NCBI GenBank assembly: GCA_002716405.1
Contig: PBBA01000006.1
Coordinates: forward strand, 477,479-541,478
Length of the DNA stretch: 64,000 nucleotides
DNA from: Chloroflexota bacterium
GTDB lineage: Bacteria; Chloroflexota; Dehalococcoidia; UBA2979
Direction of reading: 5' to 3'
The notes beneath the pieces were generated by a model, which worked only from the letters and a program-made list of their open reading frames with translations, was not told the origin of the DNA and ran no database searches. The position numbers were made by a program, and so were the translations under genes. Of the stretch, positions 18,992 through 61,222 are shown in pieces. Within the stretch, counting starts at the first letter, position 1. Every line of letters begins with the position of its first letter.

Positions 18992-19957
18992 ATGCCACTA
19001 ATAATCGAGGGAATTAAATCACCAATAGAAGGAGTGGATGATGCTTCTCTAGCTCCCGTCCTAGAGGCCATAGTCGCGGCTGCTAAATTAATTTCTAATA
19101 ATGTACAAAATGGAGCACTTATTGAGCGTCTTGATTCAGAAGGTGTGCGAAATGTTCATGGTGAATTAGTTCATACATTAGATACATTAGGGACAAATAC
19201 GTTTGTTGAATTTTTTAAGGATACCCAAGTTGTTGCTGGTTTAGTATGCGAAGAATTGGAGACGGAAACGTTTTTTAATGTGGAAGATATTTCTGAATCT
19301 TACTTCTGTGTTTTGGATCCTATCGATGGTACATCGAATGCAGATATTGCAATTACAATTGGTTCTATTTTCGGTATTTTTAAGGGGACCAATGGAGATA
19401 GTACGCTAGATGCTACTCAATTTTTGCGTCCTGCAAAAGATTTTGTTGCTGCGGGGTATGTTCTATATGGTTCAAGTACTTTGTTAATATTAGCGACTCC
19501 AATGAAAGTACAAGAATTTACACTTGATATCGCCAAGATGGAATTTGTCTGTACTCGTAGTTCACTTAGTATTCCCGTTGAATGTCCTTATTATAGTGTA
19601 AATCAAGGATATGAAGATTTTTGGGAAGATAATATAAAAGATGTCGTTCATTCAATTAAAAAAGGACGCTCATTAAGGTACGTTGGATCGTTAGTCTCAG
19701 ATTTCCACCGTGATCTTATCAGAGGTGGTGTCTATTTGTATCCAGGTGATGTGAACAATCCAGAAGGCAAAATTCGTTTGCTCTATGAAGCGGCTGTAAT
19801 GAGTTACATCGCACATTATGCCGGAGGAAGTTCTACTAATGGATATACATCTATTTTTGATTTACAACCCAAGTCAATTCATCAACGAACGCCAATTTTT
19901 GTTGGTAATTCAAATGTAATTGAACAAATCGAATCAATATTAAGAGATAATACTTGA
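18992..19957 (+). CDS. fbp: fructose-1,6-bisphosphatase, class 1
   Basis: DPIDGTSNADI metal-binding motif and GKIRLLYEAAVMSYIAHYAGG. Confidence 0.85.
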   Translation: MPLIIEGIKSPIEGVDDASLAPVLEAIVAAAKLISNNVQNGALIERLDSEGVRNVHGELVHTLDTLGTNTFVEFFKDTQVVAGLVCEELETETFFNVEDISESYFCVLDPIDGTSNADIAITIGSIFGIFKGTNGDSTLDATQFLRPAKDFVAAGYVLYGSSTLLILATPMKVQEFTLDIAKMEFVCTRSSLSIPVECPYYSVNQGYEDFWEDNIKDVVHSIKKGRSLRYVGSLVSDFHRDLIRGGVYLYPGDVNNPEGKIRLLYEAAVMSYIAHYAGGSSTNGYTSIFDLQPKSIHQRTPIFVGNSNVIEQIESILRDNT

Positions 19958-20964: not shown

Positions 20965-22032
20965 GTGGGTGGACTTGTAAGCCCTGGAGTATCTCACTCT
21001 GATATTGCTGAAGTTGCTCAATCTGCAGTAGCTAGAATTGTTATACACACTCCAATAATCGATCTCAAAACTTTTTTAGTAGGTGGCTCAATTTATATTC
21101 TTATTACTCATACAGCAGATGAGAATGATAAGCAGATATTATCGATTGCCAAGAATATTATTGATGAGTGTCAAAGTCTTGCAAAGAAATTGAAATTATA
21201 TGTTTACCATGAAAATGTAGGATTAAATTCTTCAGACGATGATTTAAATGGTTTTGGTTTTTCTGTAGCTGAAATAACTTTTGAGGAAAGAGTAAAAGAG
21301 TCCTTGATTTGCTTTATAGGATCTGGCATGGGTTTGGGAGGATTTAATCTTCCTTTGTTTAAAAGTTTTGCTGATCCATTCAATACACCTGGTTTGATTT
21401 TCTCCGATATGTTGCATGAGGGAACTGCTTTTGAAGTGCAAGATGTAATGGAACGTCGCAAGGCAGTCTTTACTAACCCCAATGAATCGTATGATTTGCT
21501 CGCCTATATAGGTATGACAGATAGATTTATTGTACATCGTGTAATTACTCGCGCTGATGGTAAAATTGTAGCAGTCGCATCAACAGATAGACTAAGTGAC
21601 GTGAATGGGTTAAATTCCGGGAATGATACTCCTGTTGCAATTGCCCGGTGTGAAGGCTCATTGCCTACAGTTGGTGAAATTACTGAACCTTATGCTGTCC
21701 CTGCGCTAGTTGTAGGTTCAAATAGAGGTTCTCACTTAGGACCATGTATGCCTGTTAGTATCACGGATTTATCAATTGGTAGATTTGATGGGCCACCTAA
21801 AGTTGCTGCTCTCGGATTTAATCTCGTTGATGGAAAACTAGGCTTGGAAAAAGATATTTTTGCTGATAAGTCGTATGATCGTGCTAGAGAGCAAGCTAAC
21901 TTACTAACAGATATTTTACGTAAACAAGGTCCATTCGAGCCATATCGAGTAAGCCTTGATAACTCTGAGATTCAACAATTACCTGGATTTGTCGCGCAAA
22001 CAGAATCTCGTTGGGTTTCAGTTGGAGAATAA
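20965..22032 (+). CDS. FBP aldolase/phosphatase (class V FBPase) homologue with substituted catalytic motifs; true start uncertain
   Basis: Conserved scaffold motifs FADPFNTPGL, RGSHLGPCMPVS, RFDGPP and QGPFEPYR. Similarity continues upstream of the GTG, where the frame is open from 20899. Confidence 0.65.
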   Translation: MGGLVSPGVSHSDIAEVAQSAVARIVIHTPIIDLKTFLVGGSIYILITHTADENDKQILSIAKNIIDECQSLAKKLKLYVYHENVGLNSSDDDLNGFGFSVAEITFEERVKESLICFIGSGMGLGGFNLPLFKSFADPFNTPGLIFSDMLHEGTAFEVQDVMERRKAVFTNPNESYDLLAYIGMTDRFIVHRVITRADGKIVAVASTDRLSDVNGLNSGNDTPVAIARCEGSLPTVGEITEPYAVPALVVGSNRGSHLGPCMPVSITDLSIGRFDGPPKVAALGFNLVDGKLGLEKDIFADKSYDRAREQANLLTDILRKQGPFEPYRVSLDNSEIQQLPGFVAQTESRWVSVGE

Positions 22033-24665: not shown

Positions 24666-26591
24666 ATGACTATTTGGATAAATTATTATTCTGTTATTGA
24701 TTTGCAAGCCGTGGAAAATGGCCCATGGATTATTGATCAAAAAAATCAACGTAGTGGTCAAGAGGAACGATTGTTGATTTTGGTCGAACCCGTATCTGAT
24801 GATTCTGCTAGCGTTTGTAGTGAAATTGCACAAGCAGTAGCAACGCTTTTTTTTCATGAAAAACTTTCTGTTACTGGTGCTTTATTACGATCGCTGAGGC
24901 AAGCTGACTATAATCTAAAGGAATGGAACAAAAGGTCATTAAGAGAACATCATGTTTCTGTCGGTTTAACTTGTATTGTTGTCGCAGGTAAAGAAGTGAC
25001 TATTGCTCAAGTTGGTCCCAGTCTTGGTTATATAGTTTCAGAAGAACAAGCCAGTCCGTTACGTACTAAAAATTATCCTGCAGCAATTCCTTTAGGTGGA
25101 GATGGGATAATTCAACCTTTATTTTCTAAATTATCTCTGGATGAGGACCATCTCTTTTTTTTGAGTTCCTTTCTGGAAAACACATTAAGTGAAGATGAAT
25201 TGGCATCTTTTCTAAACTCTGATTCATCTCGATGTCTTGGGGAATTATATTCACGAACTCGTGATGTGAAAAACATGGCCGCTATCGTTTTGGCACCGAC
25301 TCATGTAGACGATCTTGTGCAACCTTTGATTCAAGATACAGTTCCCTTAGATAGTGGTTCCGAAAAAATTGTAGCTATAGGCGTTGAGCAAAAAAATAAT
25401 TCTTTGCAATCTCGTAATCCTAAAGATTATCTCAATAAACATAAGCCAAAAAAAATTGGAAGAATCTTTAATTTCCGTAGGGTGTTGATGTCGATTGCGT
25501 TAACTCTGTCTCTAATTGTTATTTCAATGGGGTGGACATTTTTTTCAGGCTTACTGCAAGAAGATATCGTTGCACAATTTGATGAGTCAATTAGTAATGC
25601 TAGAGAATATGTCGAAATTTTCAATGATAATAACGTTATTGAAATTCGTAGGATGGCTTTAGATGATGCACTTACAGAGCTGGAACGAGCTCGAGCGTTA
25701 ATGCCAGAAGATGACAGCGCAAAGTTATTACAGGCACAGATTTTAGATCTAGTCAAAACATTGGATGCGGTAGTAGAGGTGAAAGATTTCGATGCAACTG
25801 CGAGACTAACGGGTATAATTACTACACCTTTCCAGCCTGTCGATATTGTAGTTGGCAGTTCTTTAGTTTGGTTACATGATTCAGCACAAGGCCGTGTATT
25901 TGTGATTAATCAAGATCTTGTTTCTGAATTCATAGAAGTTTATCGAGCTGGTAAGGTTTATGGTTCTATTTCTGCAGGTTATCCTGTGGCCTTAACTTTT
26001 GATTCAACTAATGCACGTCTTTTGTTGATAGACCAATATAGACAGCTTTGGAGCATAGATCGAGATGGCGTTGTTAATTCTTTAACGCTAAGAGGCATTA
26101 ATGAAGTTCAAGATATTACCGCAATAGATACGTTTAAAGGTAATCTTTATCTTTTGGACGCATCTTCTAATGAAGTGTGGCGATATGTACCGGTAGGTGA
26201 AAGCTTTGACTCGGAAAGATCTAGTGTTTTAGGCTCAGTCAGACTTAGCAAACCTTTAGATCTATATGTCGATAAAGCAGTATATGTTTTAGATGATGTA
26301 ACTATTCGTCGTTTTGTACAAGGGATTGAAACTAATAAACTCTTTGAAGGAATCGATAATGTGCCACACGCAATGGACTCTATGATTGGGTCTAGTGAGC
26401 AGGAATTAATTTTTTTGGTTGATAGAGGGAATGGCCGAATTATAGTTAGTGAACAAGGTGGTTTATTTATAAGGCAGTATCGAAGCCCAAAATTTTCCGA
26501 TTTGAGGTCGATTGCCATTTCTCAAGATACAGACTTATTATTTGTATTGACTGGTACAGAATTAAATCTGCTTAGATTAGTTAGTAACTAG
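24666..26591 (+). CDS. hypothetical single-pass membrane protein; PP2C-like (degenerate) N-terminal region and beta-rich extracytoplasmic C-terminal region
   Basis: 641-aa ORF. VGLTCIVVAGKEVTIAQVGPSLGYIV resembles the PP2C ...VANVGDSR... strand pair without the Asp. TM segment VLMSIALTLSLIVISMGWTFF. Confidence 0.6.
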   Translation: MTIWINYYSVIDLQAVENGPWIIDQKNQRSGQEERLLILVEPVSDDSASVCSEIAQAVATLFFHEKLSVTGALLRSLRQADYNLKEWNKRSLREHHVSVGLTCIVVAGKEVTIAQVGPSLGYIVSEEQASPLRTKNYPAAIPLGGDGIIQPLFSKLSLDEDHLFFLSSFLENTLSEDELASFLNSDSSRCLGELYSRTRDVKNMAAIVLAPTHVDDLVQPLIQDTVPLDSGSEKIVAIGVEQKNNSLQSRNPKDYLNKHKPKKIGRIFNFRRVLMSIALTLSLIVISMGWTFFSGLLQEDIVAQFDESISNAREYVEIFNDNNVIEIRRMALDDALTELERARALMPEDDSAKLLQAQILDLVKTLDAVVEVKDFDATARLTGIITTPFQPVDIVVGSSLVWLHDSAQGRVFVINQDLVSEFIEVYRAGKVYGSISAGYPVALTFDSTNARLLLIDQYRQLWSIDRDGVVNSLTLRGINEVQDITAIDTFKGNLYLLDASSNEVWRYVPVGESFDSERSSVLGSVRLSKPLDLYVDKAVYVLDDVTIRRFVQGIETNKLFEGIDNVPHAMDSMIGSSEQELIFLVDRGNGRIIVSEQGGLFIRQYRSPKFSDLRSIAISQDTDLLFVLTGTELNLLRLVSN

Positions 26592-39554: not shown

Positions 39555-40009
39555 TAAATTTTCTCCAACAATAGTTCAAATTCAACGGATGATCCTGCTG
39601 GTAATGATGCTACTCCAAAAGCAACGCGTGCGCCAACTCCATTGATATCCCCAAATAAATCTTTAAGTAGTTCACTCGCCCCATTTACAACAGCTGGATG
39701 TTCTTTATAGTCTGTGGTGGCTGAGACATACCCTACACTTTTAATCACTCGTAAATTTTCAAGAGAACCTAGTAATGTATTCACTGCTCCTAAAGCATTA
39801 ATTGCACAGATTCTTGCTGCCGCGTACCCTTCTTCAGTACTTACATTATCACCTAACTTTCCTGGGTTTAGTAATTTCCCACTTTGAACTGGTAATTGCC
39901 CTGAAACATAGATGTATTTTCCTGATTGAACTGCAGGTGAATAGACGCCACCCGCTTTCGGATTCGGAAGTTCAATATTTAGCTCTTGCAGACGTTCAAT
40001 AATTGTCAT
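39554..40009 (-). CDS. ridA: RidA/YjgF family reactive-intermediate deaminase
   Basis: YSPAVQSGKYIYVSGQLP and ARVAFGVASLP motifs. The ATG at 40009 (MTIIERL) is preferred; it overlaps the parB 3' end by 14 nt. Confidence 0.85.
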   Translation of the reverse strand: MTIIERLQELNIELPNPKAGGVYSPAVQSGKYIYVSGQLPVQSGKLLNPGKLGDNVSTEEGYAAARICAINALGAVNTLLGSLENLRVIKSVGYVSATTDYKEHPAVVNGASELLKDLFGDINGVGARVAFGVASLPAGSSVEFELLLEKI

Positions 40010-40946
40010 GATTTTCCTCTTCGATAAGACGTGAAAGAATCCCTTCGTACTCTTCCTCACTATAGAAATGAATAGTTAGAGTTCCCGATCCATCTTTGGC
40101 ACGTTGGACAGTCACTTTTGTACCAAATAATCGCTGTAATGTAACGCTGATATGTTTAATATCCGGCGGCATAGTTTCTAATTCTATTGAAGGATCTTTT
40201 GTTAAAGTATTTTCTATTTCAGTAGGATTTTTATGATCGCGTTGATTCTTAACAATATTTTCTGTCTGTCGAACATTTAAATTGCCATCGATTATTAAAT
40301 TAAGGACATTTATCATATCTTCATGGGTATCTAATCCTAGAAGCGCTCGTGCGTGTCCTTCGGTAATTTCAGCACTTGTTAGTGATTCCTGAATCGTGGC
40401 AGGTAATTCAAGCAATCTAAGAATGTTCGTAATTGTTGTTCGAGATTTACCGACACGGTCAGCAATTTCTTGCTGTGTGAGATTAAAATCATTTGCTAGC
40501 TTTCGATACGCGGTAGCTTCTTCTAACGCGCTTAAGTCAGCACGTTGAATATTTTCTATGAGAGCTAACTCTAATAGCTCTTGCGGATTGGTTTCTTTAA
40601 CTAATACAGGTATCTTTTCTAAATTTGCTATTTTAGCTGCACGCCATCTTCGTTCTCCTGCGATCAATTGGAAAGTACCATTTTTTTGATCAGATACTAG
40701 TAATGGCTGTAATATTCCATGTTCTTTTATTGAACTAGCTAATTCTGATATTTCTTGTTCGTTAAATTCTGTTCTTGGTTGATTAGGATTGGGTTTTATA
40801 TTGTCTGTGTTTACTGTCAAAATATTTAAATCAGAAGTACTTTCCTGATTGGTTTGCATTTTATCTTCAACGTAGTTTTCTTCATTCTGTTGACTATCTG
40901 GTATCAAGGCAGATAATCCACGTCCTAGTCCAGTTTTCCGTGACAT
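39996..40946 (-). CDS. parB: chromosome partitioning protein ParB
   Basis: MSRKTGLGRGLSALI, IENIQRADLS and an HTH segment. ATG at 40946 with AAGGAG 6 nt upstream. Confidence 0.9.
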   Translation of the reverse strand: MSRKTGLGRGLSALIPDSQQNEENYVEDKMQTNQESTSDLNILTVNTDNIKPNPNQPRTEFNEQEISELASSIKEHGILQPLLVSDQKNGTFQLIAGERRWRAAKIANLEKIPVLVKETNPQELLELALIENIQRADLSALEEATAYRKLANDFNLTQQEIADRVGKSRTTITNILRLLELPATIQESLTSAEITEGHARALLGLDTHEDMINVLNLIIDGNLNVRQTENIVKNQRDHKNPTEIENTLTKDPSIELETMPPDIKHISVTLQRLFGTKVTVQRAKDGSGTLTIHFYSEEEYEGILSRLIEEENHDNY

Positions 40947-40959
40947 TATAGTCTCCTTA

Positions 40960-41730
40960 TTAACTATGGTGTCCATTTGATAAATTTAGAAATTCTTCAG
41001 CAAGTTGGTTGTATGCTACTGCGCCTGCAGATTCAGGATCATAATCTAAAACAGATATTCCATGACTTGGTGCCTCGGAGAGTCTTATTGATCGGGGTAT
41101 TACTACATTAAATGTCTCGTTGAAATGTGCGCGTACTTCCAATTCAACATCTCGTGAGAGGTTTGTACGCGCATCATACATCGTAAGTAAAATGCCACAA
41201 ATTTTTAGTTTTGGGTTAAGATTTTTTTGTATTAATTCAACAGTATTAGATAGATGTTTTAATCCTTCTAATGCAAAATATTCACATTGAACAGGAATCA
41301 GCACGCTATCAGCTGCCGTAAGGGCATTTACTGTTAATAAACCTAAAGATGGTGGGCAATCAATAAAAATTAGATCATATTCTTCACGAAGGGATTCTAA
41401 AGTATTTTGCATCCGATATTCACGTGCCAGGTGTGATACAAGTTCTACTTCTACTCCTGCAAGTTCGGGTGCTGAAGGCACTATTGATACTCGTTCCATT
41501 GCGGTGCTCATTATACCGTTACGCAGTGAATAGTTATTTAGGAGCGAATCATAGAGTGCGCTATTGTTTGGTGAATTGAATCCAATCGCTGAAGATGCAT
41601 TAGACTGGGGATCAGCGTCAATAATGAGTACATTTTTATTCATCTTTCCTATTGCAGCAGCTAGCGAAACAGTTGTGGTTGTTTTTCCAACACCACCTTT
41701 TTGATTAGCGATTGCAATAATTTGACTCAA
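40960..41730 (-). CDS. parA: chromosome partitioning ATPase ParA/Soj
   Basis: IAIANQKGGVGKTTT deviant Walker A. The TTG at 41730 is preferred because AGGGAG lies 6 nt upstream, which removes the overlap with the upstream kinase. Confidence 0.9.
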   Translation of the reverse strand: MSQIIAIANQKGGVGKTTTTVSLAAAIGKMNKNVLIIDADPQSNASSAIGFNSPNNSALYDSLLNNYSLRNGIMSTAMERVSIVPSAPELAGVEVELVSHLAREYRMQNTLESLREEYDLIFIDCPPSLGLLTVNALTAADSVLIPVQCEYFALEGLKHLSNTVELIQKNLNPKLKICGILLTMYDARTNLSRDVELEVRAHFNETFNVVIPRSIRLSEAPSHGISVLDYDPESAGAVAYNQLAEEFLNLSNGHHS

Positions 41731-41731
41731 T

Positions 41732-42616
41732 TCAATCTCCCTGATGATTGTGGTCGAAAGCAGACGGTCTATCAAGTACTCTCTTGCAAATAATTTTTTT
41801 TGGGGGAAGTGGTAGAGGTCCTATTTGTTCTATCGAACTCGTTGCATATGCAGCTGCGAGCCTACCAGCATGTTGTTCTCCATGGTTTAAGCTTAATGTA
41901 AATGCGGTGGCAAAGATATCCCCTGCACCAGTCGAATCTAGTTCAAGGTTAGTTGGCACAGGTTGTATTTTTATAATTTTATCAGATCTATGAACCATTG
42001 CTCCTTGTTTTCCCAATGTTGTGATGATCCTTGCTCCTGTTGCCAGTGTTTGATTTACCTGTTCTTTACTCCAGAATTTTGCTTCTTCATCGGATCTAAA
42101 AATTGAGAATGAACGAGAAAAATATTGTAAAAGAGAGTTAAAATGAGATATATTTGAATAAATTATTTTATAATCTCCTCTTCTTTGAAGTCCCTGTGTT
42201 AGTAAAGATACATTGCTTATATTGTTTGCAAATTCTAAAAAGGGCGATATTTCAATGTCATCTTCAATTAAAGGCGCCATTATCAAAGTGTTAGTATTGC
42301 GCCAAGACTTGGGTAGATCGTCAAGGGTAATTCTTTTTGAAGGTTTTTGGAGTAATTTTAACTCGCGCTCTTCATTTTTGCTGTTAATTTCAAATGTTAA
42401 TACTTTTTTGTCAGGAATGACATGAAGTTCATGCTTTTTTAGAACCCCAAGATCAAGTTTTGAATTTCCTATAGTTAATATCCGTGCTCTGTAACCCATG
42501 GAATCAATGACTGAGGCAGCGTACGCTACTGCACCACCCAGCTGTATGCCTTTTAGGGTATGATCGATAGACATGGACCCAACTAGAAGAATAGGTTCTT
42601 GCGAATATTCACCCAA
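41732..42616 (-). CDS. PfkB-family carbohydrate kinase
   Basis: DSTGAGDIFATAF (DTxGAGD-type) motif near the C-terminus. Confidence 0.75.
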   Translation of the reverse strand: MGEYSQEPILLVGSMSIDHTLKGIQLGGAVAYAASVIDSMGYRARILTIGNSKLDLGVLKKHELHVIPDKKVLTFEINSKNEERELKLLQKPSKRITLDDLPKSWRNTNTLIMAPLIEDDIEISPFLEFANNISNVSLLTQGLQRRGDYKIIYSNISHFNSLLQYFSRSFSIFRSDEEAKFWSKEQVNQTLATGARIITTLGKQGAMVHRSDKIIKIQPVPTNLELDSTGAGDIFATAFTLSLNHGEQHAGRLAAAYATSSIEQIGPLPLPPKKIICKRVLDRPSAFDHNHQGD

Positions 42617-42653
42617 TTTTTTCTCCGGATCAATTATTAGGGGAGAAAATATA

Positions 42654-43583
42654 TTATTCCGGCATTACCTCTATTTGTCTTTCTCGGCCTTTACCAATAC
42701 TTTGGGTGGTAACGCCCGCTTCGCCTTCTAATGCTAAGTGCACAATCCTTCTTAGAGCTGCTGGCATCGGTTCTAATGTGATCACATCGCCTGTGGTGCG
42801 GACCTCCTCTGCTATCTCTTTGGCCATCGTTGTTAGGCTTGCTTCGCGTCTATGTCGATACCCATCAATGTCAATAGCATAAACAGAATTCCCCTCAACT
42901 TTACGCGAAACAAGAACGTTAGTGAGGTATTGTAACTGTTGAAGAGTTTCTCCTTTACGGCCAATGAGCATTGCGAGATTGTCTGGGTCAGACTCACCTT
43001 CACTGAAAATATCAAATACTTGATTGACACGACCTAACCCATCACCAGCGGTTTCAGGGTCTCTGACAGTAATATGGGTATCTGCAAATCCAAGTAAATT
43101 TAACAAATCTCGGAGTGTACTACCGAAAAGATCAATGTCATCGTCCCATTCAGCTTTTGAAGATACAGGTATGTTTTCGGTTGGCGCACCTGGTATCTTG
43201 ATTTCATCAGATTTTGTGACAGGAATAATTTCTCTCGCATTTTCTTCGCGATTCGACTGACGTCTATCTTTGCGTTGCCTTTTATTGTTAGGGTTGATCT
43301 CGCTATTTCGGTTACCACGATTCGACGATCCTTGTTCGCTACGTGTGTTCCCGTTACGTCGATTAGTCTGGCGTCCACGCCTTGTAGGCCTTCGATTGCG
43401 GTTACTGCCACTTCGCTTAGCGGTTACTCGGACAATTGCCTCTTCACCACCTAAACCAAGAAACCCCTTACTTCCTTTACGAATTACTTCGACGTCTACT
43501 TGATCTTTTCGACGTCCTAGCTGTTCTAGCGCCCGTTCTACGGCGTCTTCGACGGTTCGTCCGCTGGTTTCGGCCACTTCCAT
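42654..43583 (-). CDS. jag: Jag/KhpB RNA-binding protein (Jag_N, R/N-rich linker, KH, R3H)
   Basis: N-terminal VAETSGRTVEDAVERALEQLG, KH-like GRKGETLQQLQYL, R3H RRIVHLAL. ATG at 43583 with GGAG 7 nt upstream. Confidence 0.85.
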   Translation of the reverse strand: MEVAETSGRTVEDAVERALEQLGRRKDQVDVEVIRKGSKGFLGLGGEEAIVRVTAKRSGSNRNRRPTRRGRQTNRRNGNTRSEQGSSNRGNRNSEINPNNKRQRKDRRQSNREENAREIIPVTKSDEIKIPGAPTENIPVSSKAEWDDDIDLFGSTLRDLLNLLGFADTHITVRDPETAGDGLGRVNQVFDIFSEGESDPDNLAMLIGRKGETLQQLQYLTNVLVSRKVEGNSVYAIDIDGYRHRREASLTTMAKEIAEEVRTTGDVITLEPMPAALRRIVHLALEGEAGVTTQSIGKGRERQIEVMPE

Positions 43584-44424
43584 TTGTAGTCTCCATTTCA
43601 TTTATTTCAGCCATTTCGACTGTGTTTTGTGTATTTATTTCCTTCTGTGCATTAGTAGAAAGTTCCCTTTTCTTTCTCATTGGTGTAGGGATTAGACTTT
43701 CCCAAGTAAAATCTCCCGGTCCTACATATTTCCACTGGAGCATTATGCCAATAATTGTACTAAAACCCCAGTATACGCCAAGGCCTGCAGGTAGTGTAAG
43801 CACAAACCATCCAAACATCATAGGCAACATCCATTGCATCATTTGATTCATTGATTGTTGTTGGGGAGTTTGTGTTGCTGGATTACTAGAAGTTGATATT
43901 TTTTGCTGTAACCACATAGATGCCCCTACGATAATGGCAAGCAAAAATCCACCACGAGCCCCTAAATCCAGCCATAAGAACGTAGTGGAAAGTGGTATAA
44001 CATTTTCTAGAATTTGATAAGAGTAAACACGCGGTGCAAGATCCACTAAGGATTCAGGGGTAGAACCTAAGGTGATACGGATAACTTGGTAGAGTGCAAT
44101 AAAAATTGGTAATTGAATTAATTGCGGGCCAAGACACCCTAAGGGGCTAACGCCGGACTCTTTGTATAGTTTCATAGTTTCTTCAGATCTTCGCTTAGGA
44201 TCTGAGTATTTTTTCTGAATTTCCTTCATTTGAGGCTGTAAACCTTGCATGGCTTTTGCAGATCTTAATGTTTTTAATGTTAATGGGAATAGCAATACTC
44301 TTGAAATGATTGTAAAGATAATTATGGCAATTCCATATTGATTAAAAGTAAGTGAACTCAATATCAGCATAAAATTTAAAAGCGGTGTTTCGAGTCCGGC
44401 TTGCCAGATAGCTCCAATAGGCAC
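43477..44424 (-). CDS. yidC: membrane protein insertase YidC (short, monoderm-type) with Arg-rich C-terminal tail
   Basis: TLKTLRSAKAMQGLQPQMKEIQKKY, LGCLGPQLIQLPIF and 5 TM segments. GTG start preceded by GGGAGGA. Confidence 0.88.
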   Translation of the reverse strand: MPIGAIWQAGLETPLLNFMLILSSLTFNQYGIAIIIFTIISRVLLFPLTLKTLRSAKAMQGLQPQMKEIQKKYSDPKRRSEETMKLYKESGVSPLGCLGPQLIQLPIFIALYQVIRITLGSTPESLVDLAPRVYSYQILENVIPLSTTFLWLDLGARGGFLLAIIVGASMWLQQKISTSSNPATQTPQQQSMNQMMQWMLPMMFGWFVLTLPAGLGVYWGFSTIIGIMLQWKYVGPGDFTWESLIPTPMRKKRELSTNAQKEINTQNTVEMAEINEMETTNGSGRNQRTNRRRRRRTGARTARTSKRSSRRRSNS

Positions 44425-44426
44425 GG

Positions 44427-45512
44427 TTAATCCTCCCTTTTGTAACGATTACTTACGTTACCTGTTTGAGGATTGATATGAATAATTTCACCTGAATGAC
44501 TGAGTATAATTGCCTGGTTGTTGATTAATAACGGTCTTGGCAAGAATTTTGCATCTTCAATTTTACGTTTCCAGAGGATATTTCCAGTACCTTGTTCTAG
44601 TCCAACAATATTACCTTTTCTACATATAACAACTATGACTCCGTTTGAAACAATTGGGGTTGTGCTGAAATTTAAACCTTCATGGGTAGACTTCCAGAGC
44701 ATTTCACCATTTGTTGGGTTAATTGCGGCTATGATCCCACGGGTGGTTACTACATATAGTGTTCCTGAAGAAAGTAAAGGCTTTGCAATTATCCAGCCGT
44801 CTAAAGATAGCTCCCAGTCTTTATCGAGTGAGTTGGTGGCGGTAAATGAACTTAAACGGCCCCCAAGAGTACCTACAATAAGCTTACCTGTTGCCGTTGA
44901 CAAGCTAGAAGCAACCCCGCCAGAAAGGGTTATTTCCGAATCGATAGTACCGTTTGATAAGTTAATACCGACAATCTTTTTTGTATCAAGGGAAGCGAGG
45001 TAAATAACGTTTCCAAAAATAACTGGAGAAGCCCAAACTCGACCTTCTACCTGCTCAAAACTATCAATTAATGCACCATTGTCTTTATTAATGACCAATA
45101 TGTTGCCATTTTCTGTTGTGACGTAGAGTCTTCCATTATGGATAATAGGCTCTGAGATAATTTTGGAGCCTACATCTCGCATATCAGTCCAGTTTAGACG
45201 CCCTGTTGTTATATCGATCGATCCTACTTGGCCGCTGTGATCTGCAATGAATGCGGTATTACCTTCAATTACTGGCGTTGCGTAGAATCCATCGAAATCT
45301 TTATCATCCTGCTTGTAAGGGAACCTCCAGCTTTCTAAAAATCTTCCCGAACTATTGAGGGCACCTCCACTGAGTACACCTCGTTTAAGTTGCAGTATAA
45401 CAGTGTCATTTTTTTCAACTGGATCTGCCCATCCCTCTGGGCCACTAACATCAGCGCAACCTGTACCTATAAGTACTAGTAGGGTTAGCAATAAAAGTTT
45501 CACGTGAAACAT
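44427..45512 (-). CDS. PQQ-like beta-propeller repeat lipoprotein (BamB-like fold)
   Basis: Lipobox LIGTGC after MFHVKLLLLTLLV. Repeated G.l.ald...G...W motifs. ATG at 45512 with AAGGAG upstream. Confidence 0.75.
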   Translation of the reverse strand: MFHVKLLLLTLLVLIGTGCADVSGPEGWADPVEKNDTVILQLKRGVLSGGALNSSGRFLESWRFPYKQDDKDFDGFYATPVIEGNTAFIADHSGQVGSIDITTGRLNWTDMRDVGSKIISEPIIHNGRLYVTTENGNILVINKDNGALIDSFEQVEGRVWASPVIFGNVIYLASLDTKKIVGINLSNGTIDSEITLSGGVASSLSTATGKLIVGTLGGRLSSFTATNSLDKDWELSLDGWIIAKPLLSSGTLYVVTTRGIIAAINPTNGEMLWKSTHEGLNFSTTPIVSNGVIVVICRKGNIVGLEQGTGNILWKRKIEDAKFLPRPLLINNQAIILSHSGEIIHINPQTGNVSNRYKRED

Positions 45513-45540
45513 CGGCTCCTTTATGCAATTTAGTACGCTG

Positions 45541-45816
45541 TTAAGCATTAGATCTGTCAAACCCCCTGTATTCTGTTTTTTTTGAAGGAACAGGGTCTAG
45601 GCCTCCTGTTGCAAATGGGTGACATTTTAGTAGTCTTTTGATTGTAAAGACGGATCCTTTGGTGACCCCAAATCTAATTATTGCAGTATGGGCATACGCC
45701 GAACAGGTAGGGCTATATTTACACGAAGGCCCTAGCAAAGGCGAGATAGCAAATTGGTAGGTACGAATCAATCCAAGTAAAGTTGATTTTATTGATTTAG
45801 ACAAATAATTACTCAC
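45541..45816 (-). CDS. yidD: membrane protein insertion efficiency factor YidD
   Basis: [23 protein letters not shown]...CHPF..GGLDPVP. Confidence 0.88.
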
Positions 45817-45819
45817 TAT

Positions 45820-46164
45820 CTATAATTCTAACTGTAAGATATCGATTGATCTCTTAATATCTATCTCTAGCTCTTTGTAACTCGCTTCAGATGCTTTTCT
45901 TGATGGTATTGCTACGATATCGAGACCAGGTTTTATCGCATAATCACGAATTATCGCACGTAGCCTTCGCTTAATTTGATTACGTGTAACAGCACAACCA
46001 GTGGCTTTATTGACTGAATACCCCACACGGCTGTAGCCAAGATTATTTGGACATGCAACGACCTTCAATATTTTCCCACGCGCATGTCTTCCGTGTTTCA
46101 TGACATTTGAAAAATCTTGACTATGACGTAAACGAGTTAGTTTCTTATCTGTTAGTTGGTTCAC
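45820..46164 (-). CDS. rnpA: ribonuclease P protein component
   Basis: Basic 114-aa protein with an RNR-like motif (AVTRNQIKRRLR), immediately downstream of rpmH. Confidence 0.88.
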   Translation of the reverse strand: MNQLTDKKLTRLRHSQDFSNVMKHGRHARGKILKVVACPNNLGYSRVGYSVNKATGCAVTRNQIKRRLRAIIRDYAIKPGLDIVAIPSRKASEASYKELEIDIKRSIDILQLEL

Positions 46165-46171
46165 AATATTT

Positions 46172-46309
46172 TTATACAGTTAGTCTCACTCTTGCACGAC
46201 TACGTCGTCTAGCCAGAATGTGTCGACCATTTTTTGTTGACATACGTGCTCGAAATCCATGTTTTCGTTTACGTGGGATTCTTTTCGGTTGCCAAGTCCT
46301 TTTTGGCAT
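46172..46309 (-). CDS. rpmH: 50S ribosomal protein L34 (not in the ORF track; below its size cutoff)
   Basis: Hand translation gives [45 protein letters not shown]. Confidence 0.93.
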
Positions 46310-46341
46310 AAAATCGCTCCGATCTCGGGCGTTTCGAGGTT

Positions 46342-46360
46342 ATTCTAAATGTTTATTCTA
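46342..46360 (-). promoter_or_regulatory. candidate rpmH promoter: two TAGAAT -10-like hexamers carried on a tandem 13-bp repeat
   Basis: TTATTCTAAATG occurs at 46340-46351 and 46353-46364. On the minus strand this gives TAGAAT at 46360-46355 and 46347-46342, the latter 33 nt from the rpmH ATG. Confidence 0.3.
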
Positions 46361-46552
46361 AATGCCTTGAAAATCCTCAAGGTATCTGAGTATAGGTCTG
46401 TACAGCATGTCAAGCAATCACGATTATAAAAATAGTTGATCTTTTCTTCAGATTATTTATACGAAGACAAATTCTCTGATTCACTCTAAGCTGTCGAGTA
46501 TTGTAAAGTTAGTACATGTTTTATACTAAACTGGTTGGATAAGGAGTAATTC

Positions 46553-46795
46553 GTGCGACAGATATATGCCGTTTTCACGGGGTTGAGTTTGAGTTTTTTT
46601 CCTTCGGTGATCCTAGCTGGTAGCGAATCTCGTTCTTTGGAGCCTAGCGTTGATTTGCAGATTGTTACTTTTTGGACAATCTTCGGTTTAGCAAGTTTAG
46701 GCATTATTATAAGTTTGGGCTATCTATATAGAAGAGAGCGAGATTTAGACTGGGATTTTCAAAAACCTGATGTTTCTCATGATAATGATCATTAA
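46553..46795 (+). CDS. hypothetical small membrane protein
   Basis: GTG start with AAGGAG 6 nt upstream; signal-like N-terminus plus one TM segment. Lies 22 nt upstream of the Prx gene. Confidence 0.45.
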   Translation: MRQIYAVFTGLSLSFFPSVILAGSESRSLEPSVDLQIVTFWTIFGLASLGIIISLGYLYRRERDLDWDFQKPDVSHDNDH

Positions 46796-46817
46796 TTAGA
46801 TATTTACAGGAGTTTTT

Positions 46818-47264
46818 ATGCTTTCAGTAGGTTCACAGATGCCAGAATTTGTTGTGCGAGATACCGAACGACAAAAAGTATCTGATCAAGATTTTAAAAA
46901 TACAGTGACAGTCATTGCATTTTATCCAATGGCATTTACGGGTGGCTGAACAATTGAAATGCAAGAGTTTCAGGAATTGATTTCTCAATTTGAAGCTCTT
47001 GATGCCAAGGTCGTTGGTATCAGTGCAGATACATTCGCTTCTCAAGGTGCATTTGCTCAGCAAAATGGGTTTACTTTTTCACTTTTATCTGACTGGCCAA
47101 ATTTGGCAATGATGGAAGCTTTCGGCGTGAAAAACGAAGCAGGCACTTCAGCAGTTAGATCGACATTCATATTTAATAAAGATTCAATTCTTCATGAAGT
47201 CATCGCAGATCAGGAAGCTTCAGATCATGCTCCTTTGGCATTAGAAGCAATTAAAGCTTTATAA
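46818..47264 (+). CDS. peroxiredoxin with in-frame TGA (46947-46949) at the peroxidatic Cys position; predicted selenoprotein
   Basis: ATG at 46818 with CAGGAG upstream. ...VIAFYPMAFTGG[TGA]TIEMQEF matches PxxxTxxC. The track reports only the part downstream of the TGA (46959..47264). Confidence 0.8.
46952..46990 (+). promoter_or_regulatory. candidate bacterial SECIS hairpin
   Basis: AAUUGAAAU-G-CAA [12-nt loop GAGUUUCAGGAA] UUG-AUUUC-UC-AAUU: 12 bp with two small bulges, starting 3 nt after the UGA. Confidence 0.5.
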
Positions 47265-47299: not shown

Positions 47300-48013
47300 C
47301 TAATGCGTGTGATGTTCTGCAGTTCCACCTGTTGTTGGGATCATAGGTGAAAACGTATTATTTTCTGTGTTGATTTTAGGTAAGGGCATTTCAAGAATTT
47401 CTTTAGATACTGCAGCTACGAGATCTGGATCATTGGGTGTTAATAACACCAAAATACCTGAATCTCGTAAAGCAAGTAGATCGTTGACACTCGGTACGTT
47501 TTCAATAAGTGCTACTAAAGGTGCACTCAAACTTGCAGCAATATTACGAAAATGTAGTTGGTCTTTTATAAAAAAAGGTTCGGGGAGTGCACCTACGAAA
47601 ACAGCGTCAATATTTCGCATGAATTTTAATGTTGTTAGTTGTTCATCATCTATATCTGGCAAGTTTAAAATTTGACCGATTTCAGATTCTCCAAATACGT
47701 TCGCTGGAGTTTGTTCGTAATCAAAAATTATAAAATCAATATTTTGATCTACTGCATCATTAATTATCTTTGTAGTTGGCGCCTCTATCTGGATTCCGAC
47801 TGTATTTTCCTCAACATCAAATTTATATATTTTCTCTGCTAATGTGAGATTACAGCCGGCTTGTACCAACTTTTGGGCTTCTGTTTTATTATTAGCTTTT
47901 GCCATAATTAATATTTGTGGATTTGGTATAGTATTGGTTTCATGCGCAAAACCAATACTTCGACGTGAGGCGTTTTGAATTGTTTGCCTGAGTAAATTTT
48001 TTATTTTGCTCAT
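47300..48013 (-). CDS. hypothetical protein
   Basis: 237-aa ORF convergent with the Prx gene. No motif recognised. Confidence 0.55.
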   Translation of the reverse strand: MSKIKNLLRQTIQNASRRSIGFAHETNTIPNPQILIMAKANNKTEAQKLVQAGCNLTLAEKIYKFDVEENTVGIQIEAPTTKIINDAVDQNIDFIIFDYEQTPANVFGESEIGQILNLPDIDDEQLTTLKFMRNIDAVFVGALPEPFFIKDQLHFRNIAASLSAPLVALIENVPSVNDLLALRDSGILVLLTPNDPDLVAAVSKEILEMPLPKINTENNTFSPMIPTTGGTAEHHTH

Positions 48014-59632: not shown

Positions 59633-61222
59633 ATGATCAGAACAGTTTTTTTTCCCATGCATTACCGCGTATTGGTGATGATCGCTATTGCCTGCAGCCT
59701 TGCATTTATTACAGGATGTTCAGGAGATTCCTCTGATTCTTCTGCGGCAGCAACGGCAGCACCAGCGGTAGCAACGACAGCACCAGCGGCAGCAACGACA
59801 GCACCAGCGGTAGCAACGACAGCACCAGCGGCAGCAACAACAGCACCAGCGGCAGCAACAACAGCACCAACGGCAGTAACGACAGCACCAGCGGTAGCAA
59901 CAACAGCACCTTCACTTACAGCAAGTATTTCCGCTACAAAGAAAGTAGCACCACCGACAGTTACTACAACCACAACAGGTCCAAAATATGTGTTTACTGA
60001 TGTTAGTGCGCCAACATCAGTATCGATTCCTGATGGTGCATTACCCAGTGGTGTCACAATTGTTCCAGAATTATGGGAAGAAAAACGCACTGATCCTGAT
60101 TCAGGAGTAGTGATCACTGAAAAGGTCTTTAAATTTGGATCGGAACATGTGGAGTTGAGTAAACCAGCACAGATCGAATTTGAAGTCCCTAAAGCAATGA
60201 ATCTCTTATTGGTTCGATCTGTAGATGATGCAGGAAATCCTATTGCTGGTGCGAGTGCCCCTACGATCACTCGTAGTACTACATCTTCAGGGACAACGAC
60301 TGTGACTGCGGAAGTGGATCATTTTAGTAATTATGTCTTTGCTTATACAAACTGGAATATCGTACGTGGTGACAGGCAAGATATTGCGAAGTACTTCAAT
60401 ATTTCTGAGATATCGCAAACATCCTATCAATCTAAAGTTGGGGAAACAGTGGAAATTCCGTTTGCTGCCAATACGGTACCTCCAGGTTTAAGTACGTACA
60501 TGAACGATTTTATGGTAGGTGTTCATAGTCAGGATAATCATATCATTATTGGTTCAAAATCCGCGGTACATGCAGACTATGGAGATTCTGATCCACACAT
60601 AAGGGCTTGGGTAACTGGTGATGAGCTAGAATATGAGGTGTTACGGTCCTGGAAGATAGCATTTGCTTACTGGCTGCCTGTAACGAACTCTTCGTTGCAT
60701 ATTGAATGTGTCAAACCAGGAAACTACGAGTTTGAACTCGAATTTGAGAGCGAGCTTACGCTGTTTGGTAGAGAACTAGAGAGTTTTCAAGCTGGGCAAT
60801 CGTTCATTGCTCTGTTTAACAGCGATAGTCTACTATTGGCAACCAAACAGCTAACAGGTGCGTACTTAGATTTGTCCTATGGCCGTGAAGCTGACATATC
60901 CATCAACTGTGTAAAGATAGAGGAGGCACCTAAAGTGTGTACCGGGCAAATACCACATGTAGTCTATGGTGTTGGTGCGACAGCAGGATCGACCATTGAG
61001 ATATATCTTGCCAGCAGTGCTATCGCACAATCATCTGCACGTTCTGTAACGTCAGTGGTTGTTGGATCAGACGGATCGTGGGGTCCTGTCAATCTTGACG
61101 ATGGGTGTGTAGGGCAGACAATACTTTTCAAAGTTGATGGAGAGTGGATGTCTCAGAGTGATACATGGTCAGCTGGAGGAGTGCCTCCTGATCCAGTCGG
61201 TGGCTATCAGTTAACTCCGTAG
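59633..61222 (+). CDS. secreted lipoprotein with an (A-T-T-A-P-A-A/V)x8 linker and a large domain of unknown function
   Basis: Signal peptide plus lipobox FITGC, S/D-rich spacer, eight heptad repeats, then about 430 aa with no recognisable family. Confidence 0.7.
   Translation: MIRTVFFPMHYRVLVMIAIACSLAFITGCSGDSSDSSAAATAAPAVATTAPAAATTAPAVATTAPAAATTAPAAATTAPTAVTTAPAVATTAPSLTASISATKKVAPPTVTTTTTGPKYVFTDVSAPTSVSIPDGALPSGVTIVPELWEEKRTDPDSGVVITEKVFKFGSEHVELSKPAQIEFEVPKAMNLLLVRSVDDAGNPIAGASAPTITRSTTSSGTTTVTAEVDHFSNYVFAYTNWNIVRGDRQDIAKYFNISEISQTSYQSKVGETVEIPFAANTVPPGLSTYMNDFMVGVHSQDNHIIIGSKSAVHADYGDSDPHIRAWVTGDELEYEVLRSWKIAFAYWLPVTNSSLHIECVKPGNYEFELEFESELTLFGRELESFQAGQSFIALFNSDSLLLATKQLTGAYLDLSYGREADISINCVKIEEAPKVCTGQIPHVVYGVGATAGSTIEIYLASSAIAQSSARSVTSVVVGSDGSWGPVNLDDGCVGQTILFKVDGEWMSQSDTWSAGGVPPDPVGGYQLTP
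59750..59917 (+). repeat. tandem 21-bp repeat, 8 units (in-frame, coding)
   Basis: gcaacgacagcaccagcggya repeated head to tail with a few substitutions; visibly more GC-rich than its surroundings. Confidence 0.9.

Follow-up and report, generated by a model that had tools for sequence, protein, structure and literature searches.

The interrupted frame and its product

The window, a stretch of 64,000 nucleotides with a GC content of ~38-42%, contains on its forward strand a single reading frame that, in translation of the window DNA, is open from start to stop apart from one lone internal stop, a TGA at codon 44 (Table 1). The sequence-only reading had described this frame, its single TGA and the CAGGAG motif ahead of the start, and both the sequence and the coordinates of these elements are confirmed here. 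The read-through translation is MLSVGSQMPEFVVRDTERQKVSDQDFKNTVTVIAFYPMAFTGG*TIEMQEF..., and its remaining 147 residues include no Cys, as had also been claimed. In the ORF list, the same frame is represented by two separate entries, 46818..46949 (43 aa, ATG) and 46959..47264 (101 aa, ATG). Motifs of the AGGAG or GAGG type precede the same start in the orthologues, and no Shine-Dalgarno motif comparable to CAGGAG can be read in the sequence upstream of the internal ATG at 46959.

Table 1. Features of the peroxiredoxin locus, in window coordinates
Feature	Position	Strand	Basis or remark
Small membrane-type ORF of 80 aa, 22 nt ahead of the Sec-peroxiredoxin gene	46553..46795	+	upstream of the Sec-peroxiredoxin gene in 39 Dehalococcoidia loci
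Shine-Dalgarno-like CAGGAG, 5 nt before the ATG	46807..46812	+	read from the sequence
Sec-peroxiredoxin CDS, 148 residues, ATG...TAA, predicted Sec at codon 44	46818..47264	+	frame, Pfam, AhpE match, dN/dS
Predicted active-site motif P37-M-A-F-T41-G-G-U44 (PxxxTxxU)	46926..46949	+	aligned to AhpE FPLAFTGIC45
In-frame UGA, putative Sec codon at the peroxidatic position	46947..46949	+	same codon across relatives; TGC/TGT in some
SECIS-like hairpin: 11-bp lower stem, GG bulge, 6-bp upper stem	46962..47001	+	-18.6 kcal/mol, z = -3.0 vs shuffles
Arg114 codon, conserved active-site Arg of peroxiredoxins	47157..47159	+	aligned to Arg of AhpE ...ANRGTFVV...; invariant in alignment A2

The public gene calls that were examined divide the gene into two ORFs, of 43 aa and ~104 aa, in agreement with the earlier claim that standard ORF calling misses it. 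A protein search returns six truncated relatives of 103-133 residues, which start at the Met located four residues past the TGA, together with full-length Cys forms; every contig with one of these truncated forms has a 43-residue ORF immediately ahead of it, and a lone in-frame TGA at codon 44 forms the join. When 1.84 billion cluster representatives are searched, ~25 of the best 150 are ~100-108 residues in length and start at that same Met, so the mis-call looks widespread.

With Cys substituted for Sec, the read-through protein matches the Pfam family AhpC-TSA (PF00578) at 1e-30, with 106.6 bits against a cut-off of 26, and the match spans residues 4-126 and profile positions 1-122 of 124. 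The Redoxin family of Pfam is matched by the read-through protein at 2e-21. Among solved relatives, M. tuberculosis AhpE (Rv2238c; 79.3 bits, E = 3e-21) matches best, and its FPLAFTGIC45 aligns with YPMAFTGG[TGA] in such a way that Cys45 falls on the TGA. The assignment of the product as a peroxiredoxin in the sequence-only reading is supported by the AhpC-TSA match, and the alignment places the TGA in the column that holds the peroxidatic Cys in AhpE and in the Cys-containing relatives, as that reading had proposed. The residues P37, T41, U44 and R114, all of which are conserved in the orthologues, are by alignment those of the peroxiredoxin active site, and AF[TS]GGU is kept in 80+ loci. Away from position 44, the window protein and the orthologues share no conserved Cys, and this absence of any conserved resolving Cys fits the earlier description of a 1-Sec enzyme. 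Among the NCBIfam models, none reaches its cut-off with the read-through protein, the top match being the BCP model NF006960 (77.3 bits against a curated cut-off of 140). The 148-residue product is, with a high degree of confidence, a cytoplasmic AhpE/BCP-like (COG1225-type) peroxiredoxin of marine Dehalococcoidia (Chloroflexota) in which the peroxidatic residue is selenocysteine.

The small ORF that precedes the peroxiredoxin gene is probably co-transcribed with it. The N-terminus of the encoded protein is signal-like; the protein also has one hydrophobic helix and, at the C-terminus, the invariant motif GYLYRRERxLDW[DE]FQKPD, and its counterparts include ORFs in L001 (9588-9830), L005 (5834-6052), L009 (2141-2377) and L011 (398-634); a counterpart is not seen in the Acidobacteriota loci. 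A 237-residue ORF on the reverse strand (47300-48013) is convergent with the peroxiredoxin gene; all Dehalococcoidia lineages have it in synteny, at lengths of 237-245 aa, and its conserved N-terminus is MS...LRQT.Q...R.IGF. Neither ORF has a Pfam or NCBIfam match, and the small ORF is devoid of Cys, while the 237-residue ORF has no conserved Cys; a redox partner among these neighbours was rejected on the grounds that neither provides a conserved Cys or a family match.

The genomes closest to the window are the marine Dehalococcoidia/Chloroflexota MAGs JAKUNM01 (Station ALOHA) and PANZ01 ("SAT228"), with ~86% DNA identity over 18-20 kb. A cluster of the origin-proximal type occupies ~39996-46400 on the reverse strand and comprises rpmH, rnpA, yidD, a PQQ/BamB-like beta-propeller gene, yidC, jag (KH/R3H), a PfkB kinase gene, parA and parB; the related contig L001 retains this cluster. 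Genes for a CoA-transferase, an amidase, an enolase-superfamily protein and a GMC-oxidoreductase lie on the other flank of the peroxiredoxin gene. Elsewhere in the window, two fructose-1,6-bisphosphatase genes are located ~1 kb apart on the forward strand (18992-19957 and 20965-22032), and the pair consists of a classical FBPase (PF00316) and an FBP aldolase/phosphatase type (PF01950). Two large forward-strand ORFs are without a Pfam match, one of 641 residues (24666-26591) and one of 529 residues (59633-61222); the former has a weak, sub-threshold NCBIfam match to a contractile-injection-system protein (E = 0.004).

Codon 44 and the downstream hairpin across relatives

Codon 44 is TGA in 12 of 13 Dehalococcoidia species-representative genomes, the exception being L022 (TGC). 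All 10 Acidobacteriota relatives and a single Acidimicrobiales genome also have TGA, for a species-level total of 23 genomes with this codon. The metagenome loci give 59 TGA codons in 60 evaluable cases, a proportion that is biased towards Sec forms because one of the two search patterns is the motif just after Sec. A Cys codon (TGC/TGT) occupies this position in L022, P0004 and more distant relatives, and the same column holds Cys in AhpE, P0004, L022, L036-L039 and L107; the loci used for the TGA/Cys comparison span 38% to >70% GC. MDTE01062685.1, an independently made assembly from the same population (99.8% identity over 6.3 kb), likewise has the TGA, as do both of the MAGs that share ~86% DNA identity with the window. 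Since independent assemblies all carry the TGA, a base-call error, which had been named as a finding that would overturn the interpretation, is ruled out.

In more than 80 loci, the junction between the two parts of the gene is exactly one TGA and never TAA, TAG or a frameshift. Upstream of the TGA (codons 1-43), pairwise dN/dS is 0.06-0.22, and downstream of it (codons 45-145) the range is 0.04-0.29; these low values on both flanks indicate that both parts are translated in this frame. The pattern at codon 44, as judged from the aligned sequences, is far beyond chance, in that the TGA is recurrent, the protein is conserved on both sides of it, and the flanks are under purifying selection.

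The Sec forms of Dehalococcoidia, of Acidobacteriota and of a third group (DFTPGUTNEMQAFQ, L097-L106) have U-T-x-E-M-x-x-F-Q in common (loci L013-L035 and L049-L106), and the Cys relatives have C-T-x-E-x-C-x-F-R-D in its place. Two Cys forms (TGC), L022 from genome CAYZJO01 and P0004, occur among the Sec-containing Dehalococcoidia; a recent change from Sec to Cys in these two sequences is suggested by the T-L-E-M-R-A-F-Q context and the portion of the hairpin that they retain. Additionally, the Cys form L022, with its retained T-L-E-M-R-A-F-Q, and the Sec form L025 have a common N-terminal sequence, MLQIGDRMPEFVLRD, and this likeness suggests that Sec and Cys have been exchanged within the clade. 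A further difference concerns the N-termini: the Sec-peroxiredoxins of the Acidobacteriota-type loci (L026-L035 and L080-L095) carry signal-peptide-like extensions, and the Dehalococcoidia proteins start with MLxVG. In view of these extensions, the Acidobacteriota Sec-peroxiredoxins may be exported, unlike those of Dehalococcoidia.

A stable hairpin begins 15 nt past the U of the UGA, inside the coding sequence, and its apical loop is UUUC (46981-46984). This hairpin is the most stable 45-nt window of the gene (z = -4.6). Across relatives, the mean z of the post-UGA window against the rest of the gene is -2.44 for 25 Sec forms versus -0.84 for 5 Cys forms. The Sec forms have a hairpin at the same place with at least 4 different stem sequences: UUCCAGC/GCUGGAA in most of the GC-rich forms, GUCGGCG/CGCCGAC in L017, L018 and L051, GCGUAUCAG.../...CUGAUAUCGC in three Acidobacteriota, and an AT-rich version in the lineage of the window, in which the register is shifted by one base. 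A paired change in the stem is observed in L070, with UUU...AAA versus UUC...GAA elsewhere, at the cost of a Glu-to-Lys replacement. The consensus stem pairs best at slide 0, where 76.5% of cells are paired versus 47% and 61% in the slid registers. With the lineages placed on a shared register, covariation is modest, the observed score being reached by 20 of 500 shuffles, and a single common SECIS structure for all lineages was rejected in view of this modest covariation, the one-base register shift and the quite different stems of some lineages. The hairpin lies within the coding sequence, and its conservation is therefore partly due to the protein; the U-T-x-E-M-x-x-F-Q peptide overlaps the 5' arm, so that RNA and protein constraints are entangled.

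The bSECIS model specifies an apical loop of 3-9 nt, an upper stem of 4-16 bp, a G in the first two loop positions, a distance of 16-37 nt from the UGA to the loop and an MFE of -7.5 kcal/mol or lower (PMC13188914). The minimum-energy fold of the window hairpin has a 4-nt loop, a 6-bp upper stem, a distance of 31 nt from the UGA and an energy of -18.6 kcal/mol, and its UUUC loop is without the G that the model requires. A conformer at -13.3 kcal/mol has an 8-nt loop, GAUUUCUC, which starts with G, and it agrees with the bSECIS model in all four respects; the G is in place only in a conformer 4.4 kcal/mol less stable than the minimum-energy fold. Judged from these predicted folds, the hairpin is consistent with a bacterial SECIS, and the agreement is not conclusive.

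Proposed decoding of the UGA and alternative explanations

TGA is the stop codon of 11 of the 60 window ORFs, and the window is ~91% coding under table 11. Together, these values indicate that TGA is not reassigned genome-wide, and they rule out an alternative genetic code in which TGA encodes Trp or Gly. The components of selenocysteine decoding were sought both in the window and beyond it. ARAGORN finds no tRNA-Sec in the window and 26 loci, and tblastn with the E. coli proteins finds no selA, selB or selD in the window and related loci, 652 kb in all. Set against a genome size of ~3 Mb, this covers a minor fraction, and the negative result is absence of evidence only. The window has no Rfam match at the gathering thresholds, Pfam scans of 20 of its larger ORFs reveal no Sec machinery, and the 10 kb past its left end contain only housekeeping genes. 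A survey of the window for further selenoprotein genes, which covered TGA-bridged ORFs, TGA read-through, upstream extensions and ORFs in intergenic gaps, yields no convincing candidate.

Use of Sec is documented for Chloroflexi and Acidobacteria (PMC1794560), tRNA-Sec is present in Dehalogenimonas (PMC5330540), and the top ten of bacteria by selenoprotein content in BSepDB include two Dehalococcoidia MAGs, which carry 49 and 46 selenoprotein genes (PMC13326102). From these reports and from the pattern of TGA conservation, we infer that the source genome encodes the Sec-decoding machinery. Apart from this qualification and that concerning the PrxU subtype, which is discussed below, the observation and the interpretation of the sequence-only reading are borne out in every part that could be checked.

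In the proposed mechanism, the UGA at codon 44 would be read by Sec-tRNA(Sec) delivered by SelB, which would be recruited by the mRNA hairpin located 15 nt downstream inside the coding sequence, and Sec insertion as a whole would proceed through SelA/SelB/SelC/SelD. The selenolate of U44, activated by P37, T41 and R114, would attack the peroxide and be converted to a selenenic acid. 1-Cys peroxiredoxins such as AhpE are recycled by an external thiol reductant. Because no resolving Cys is conserved, the window enzyme would likewise depend on an external thiol reductant, which may be a thioredoxin- or glutaredoxin-type protein or a low-molecular-weight thiol, for its regeneration via a selenenylsulfide.

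The UGA could instead be recoded to a residue other than Sec, for example to Cys by a tRNA with a UCA anticodon or to Trp by near-cognate read-through. Unusual tRNAs, possibly suppressors, are described for Acidobacteria and other bacteria (PMC5389517), and the lack of Sec machinery in the 652 kb searched points in the same direction. Trp or another non-nucleophilic residue would inactivate the enzyme, yet purifying selection is strong; moreover, a conserved hairpin right after the UGA is a signature of SelB-dependent decoding, and extensive use of Sec is documented for the class Dehalococcoidia (PMC13326102). We consider recoding to a different residue to be very unlikely.

Still more improbable is a gene that is truly split, such that only the 43-residue peptide and/or a separately started 101-residue fragment from the ATG at 46959 would be made. 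The fragment would be without the Pro, the Thr and the peroxidatic residue and could not be a peroxidase, and its start is not preceded by a Shine-Dalgarno motif. The annotation by public gene callers matches a split gene, and the Met four codons past the TGA is conserved, but the 43 upstream codons are constrained as strongly as the downstream part, the Cys forms are uninterrupted, and no junction other than one TGA is found in the >80 loci, neither TAA or TAG nor a frameshift. The least weight, close to none, is given to a sequencing or assembly error or a recent pseudogene. TGT or TGC would be converted to TGA by a single-base change, and the occurrence of the same TGA in independent assemblies, in many samples, in lineages at ~50% protein identity and in other phyla argues strongly against such an origin, as do the purifying selection on the gene and the lack of further disruptions.

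Read as a Sec-encoding frame, the locus is a genuine unannotated selenoprotein gene in a known and abundant family, and neither a new mechanism nor a new family is involved. The ~104-residue annotated fragment is catalytically meaningless. Because the gene is split in the public calls, the antioxidant repertoire and the selenium demand of the abundant ocean Dehalococcoidia are under-counted by standard pipelines. The Sec forms, interspersed with a few Cys forms such as L022 and P0004, make up a well-populated natural series that could be used to study the exchange of Sec and Cys and also to study how a SECIS fits inside a coding sequence from 38% to >70% GC. A joint reading of the neighbourhood and the clade can be offered only as a speculation that is more probably wrong than right. 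It holds that in marine Dehalococcoidia the Sec-peroxiredoxin gene and the small ORF ahead of it constitute a dedicated module in which the 80-residue membrane protein, with its invariant cytoplasmic tail YLYRRERxLDW[DE]F, might serve as a membrane tether or specificity partner for the selenoenzyme and, separately, that U-T-x-E-M-x-x-F-Q with its embedded hairpin might represent a Sec-peroxiredoxin cassette that moved between phyla together with its SECIS.

Comparison with known peroxiredoxins and selenoproteins

AhpE (Rv2238c) resembles the window protein in its similar length (153 aa), in the N-terminal ML.VG..P.F, in the aligned active site and in the absence of a resolving Cys. AhpE differs in that its peroxidatic residue is Cys rather than Sec and in its actinobacterial host, as opposed to Chloroflexota. 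The AhpE score of 79.3 bits is barely above that of the archaeal Bcp-4 of S. solfataricus (75.2 bits), and the subfamily is not separated by these scores. The thioredoxin-dependent BCP/PrxQ proteins have the same fold and the same C-T-x-E context after the active residue, and the NF006960 score of the window protein is below the cut-off of that model. The resolving Cys of BCP, five residues past the peroxidatic residue in C-T-x-E-x-C, is read as Met in the window protein (U-T-I-E-M).

PrxU of Eubacterium (Peptoclostridium) acidaminophilum is an experimentally shown Sec peroxiredoxin and, like the window protein, has Sec at the peroxidatic position. The sequence-only reading had named PrxU as a known Sec peroxiredoxin. 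The window protein is not of the PrxU type, however, as it obtains only 34.7 bits with the NCBIfam PrxU model NF040737 (233 positions), against a curated cut-off of 270, and PrxU belongs to a different peroxiredoxin subfamily.

The closest correspondence is with the Prx selenoprotein family (pfam00578/COG1225, TxxU) of Zhang, Gladyshev and co-workers, with which the window gene shares the Pfam domain, the position of Sec, the existence of Cys homologues and the hairpin after the UGA. This family had 12 members in 2006 (PMC1794560), was represented by 253 sequences in 34 GOS samples (PMC2398784), comprised 91 proteins from 78 organisms in 2016 (PMC5029168) and accounts for 7.1% of the selenoprotein genes in an expanded GOS marine dataset (PMC9402790); PxxxTxxU is described as its conserved motif in a 2026 review (PMC13188914). 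It ranks within the top ten of bacterial selenoprotein families. The statement in the earlier reading that the family of Sec-peroxiredoxins is not new is in accord with these reports, in which the family is abundant in marine metagenomes (PMC2398784, PMC5029168, PMC13188914). The Prx TxxU family is delimited by domain and motif, not by orthology. By the operational definition of the family, the window gene, as far as its sequence can tell, is a member: it has the domain, the motif, a Sec/Cys pair, UGA-containing homologues and the downstream hairpin.
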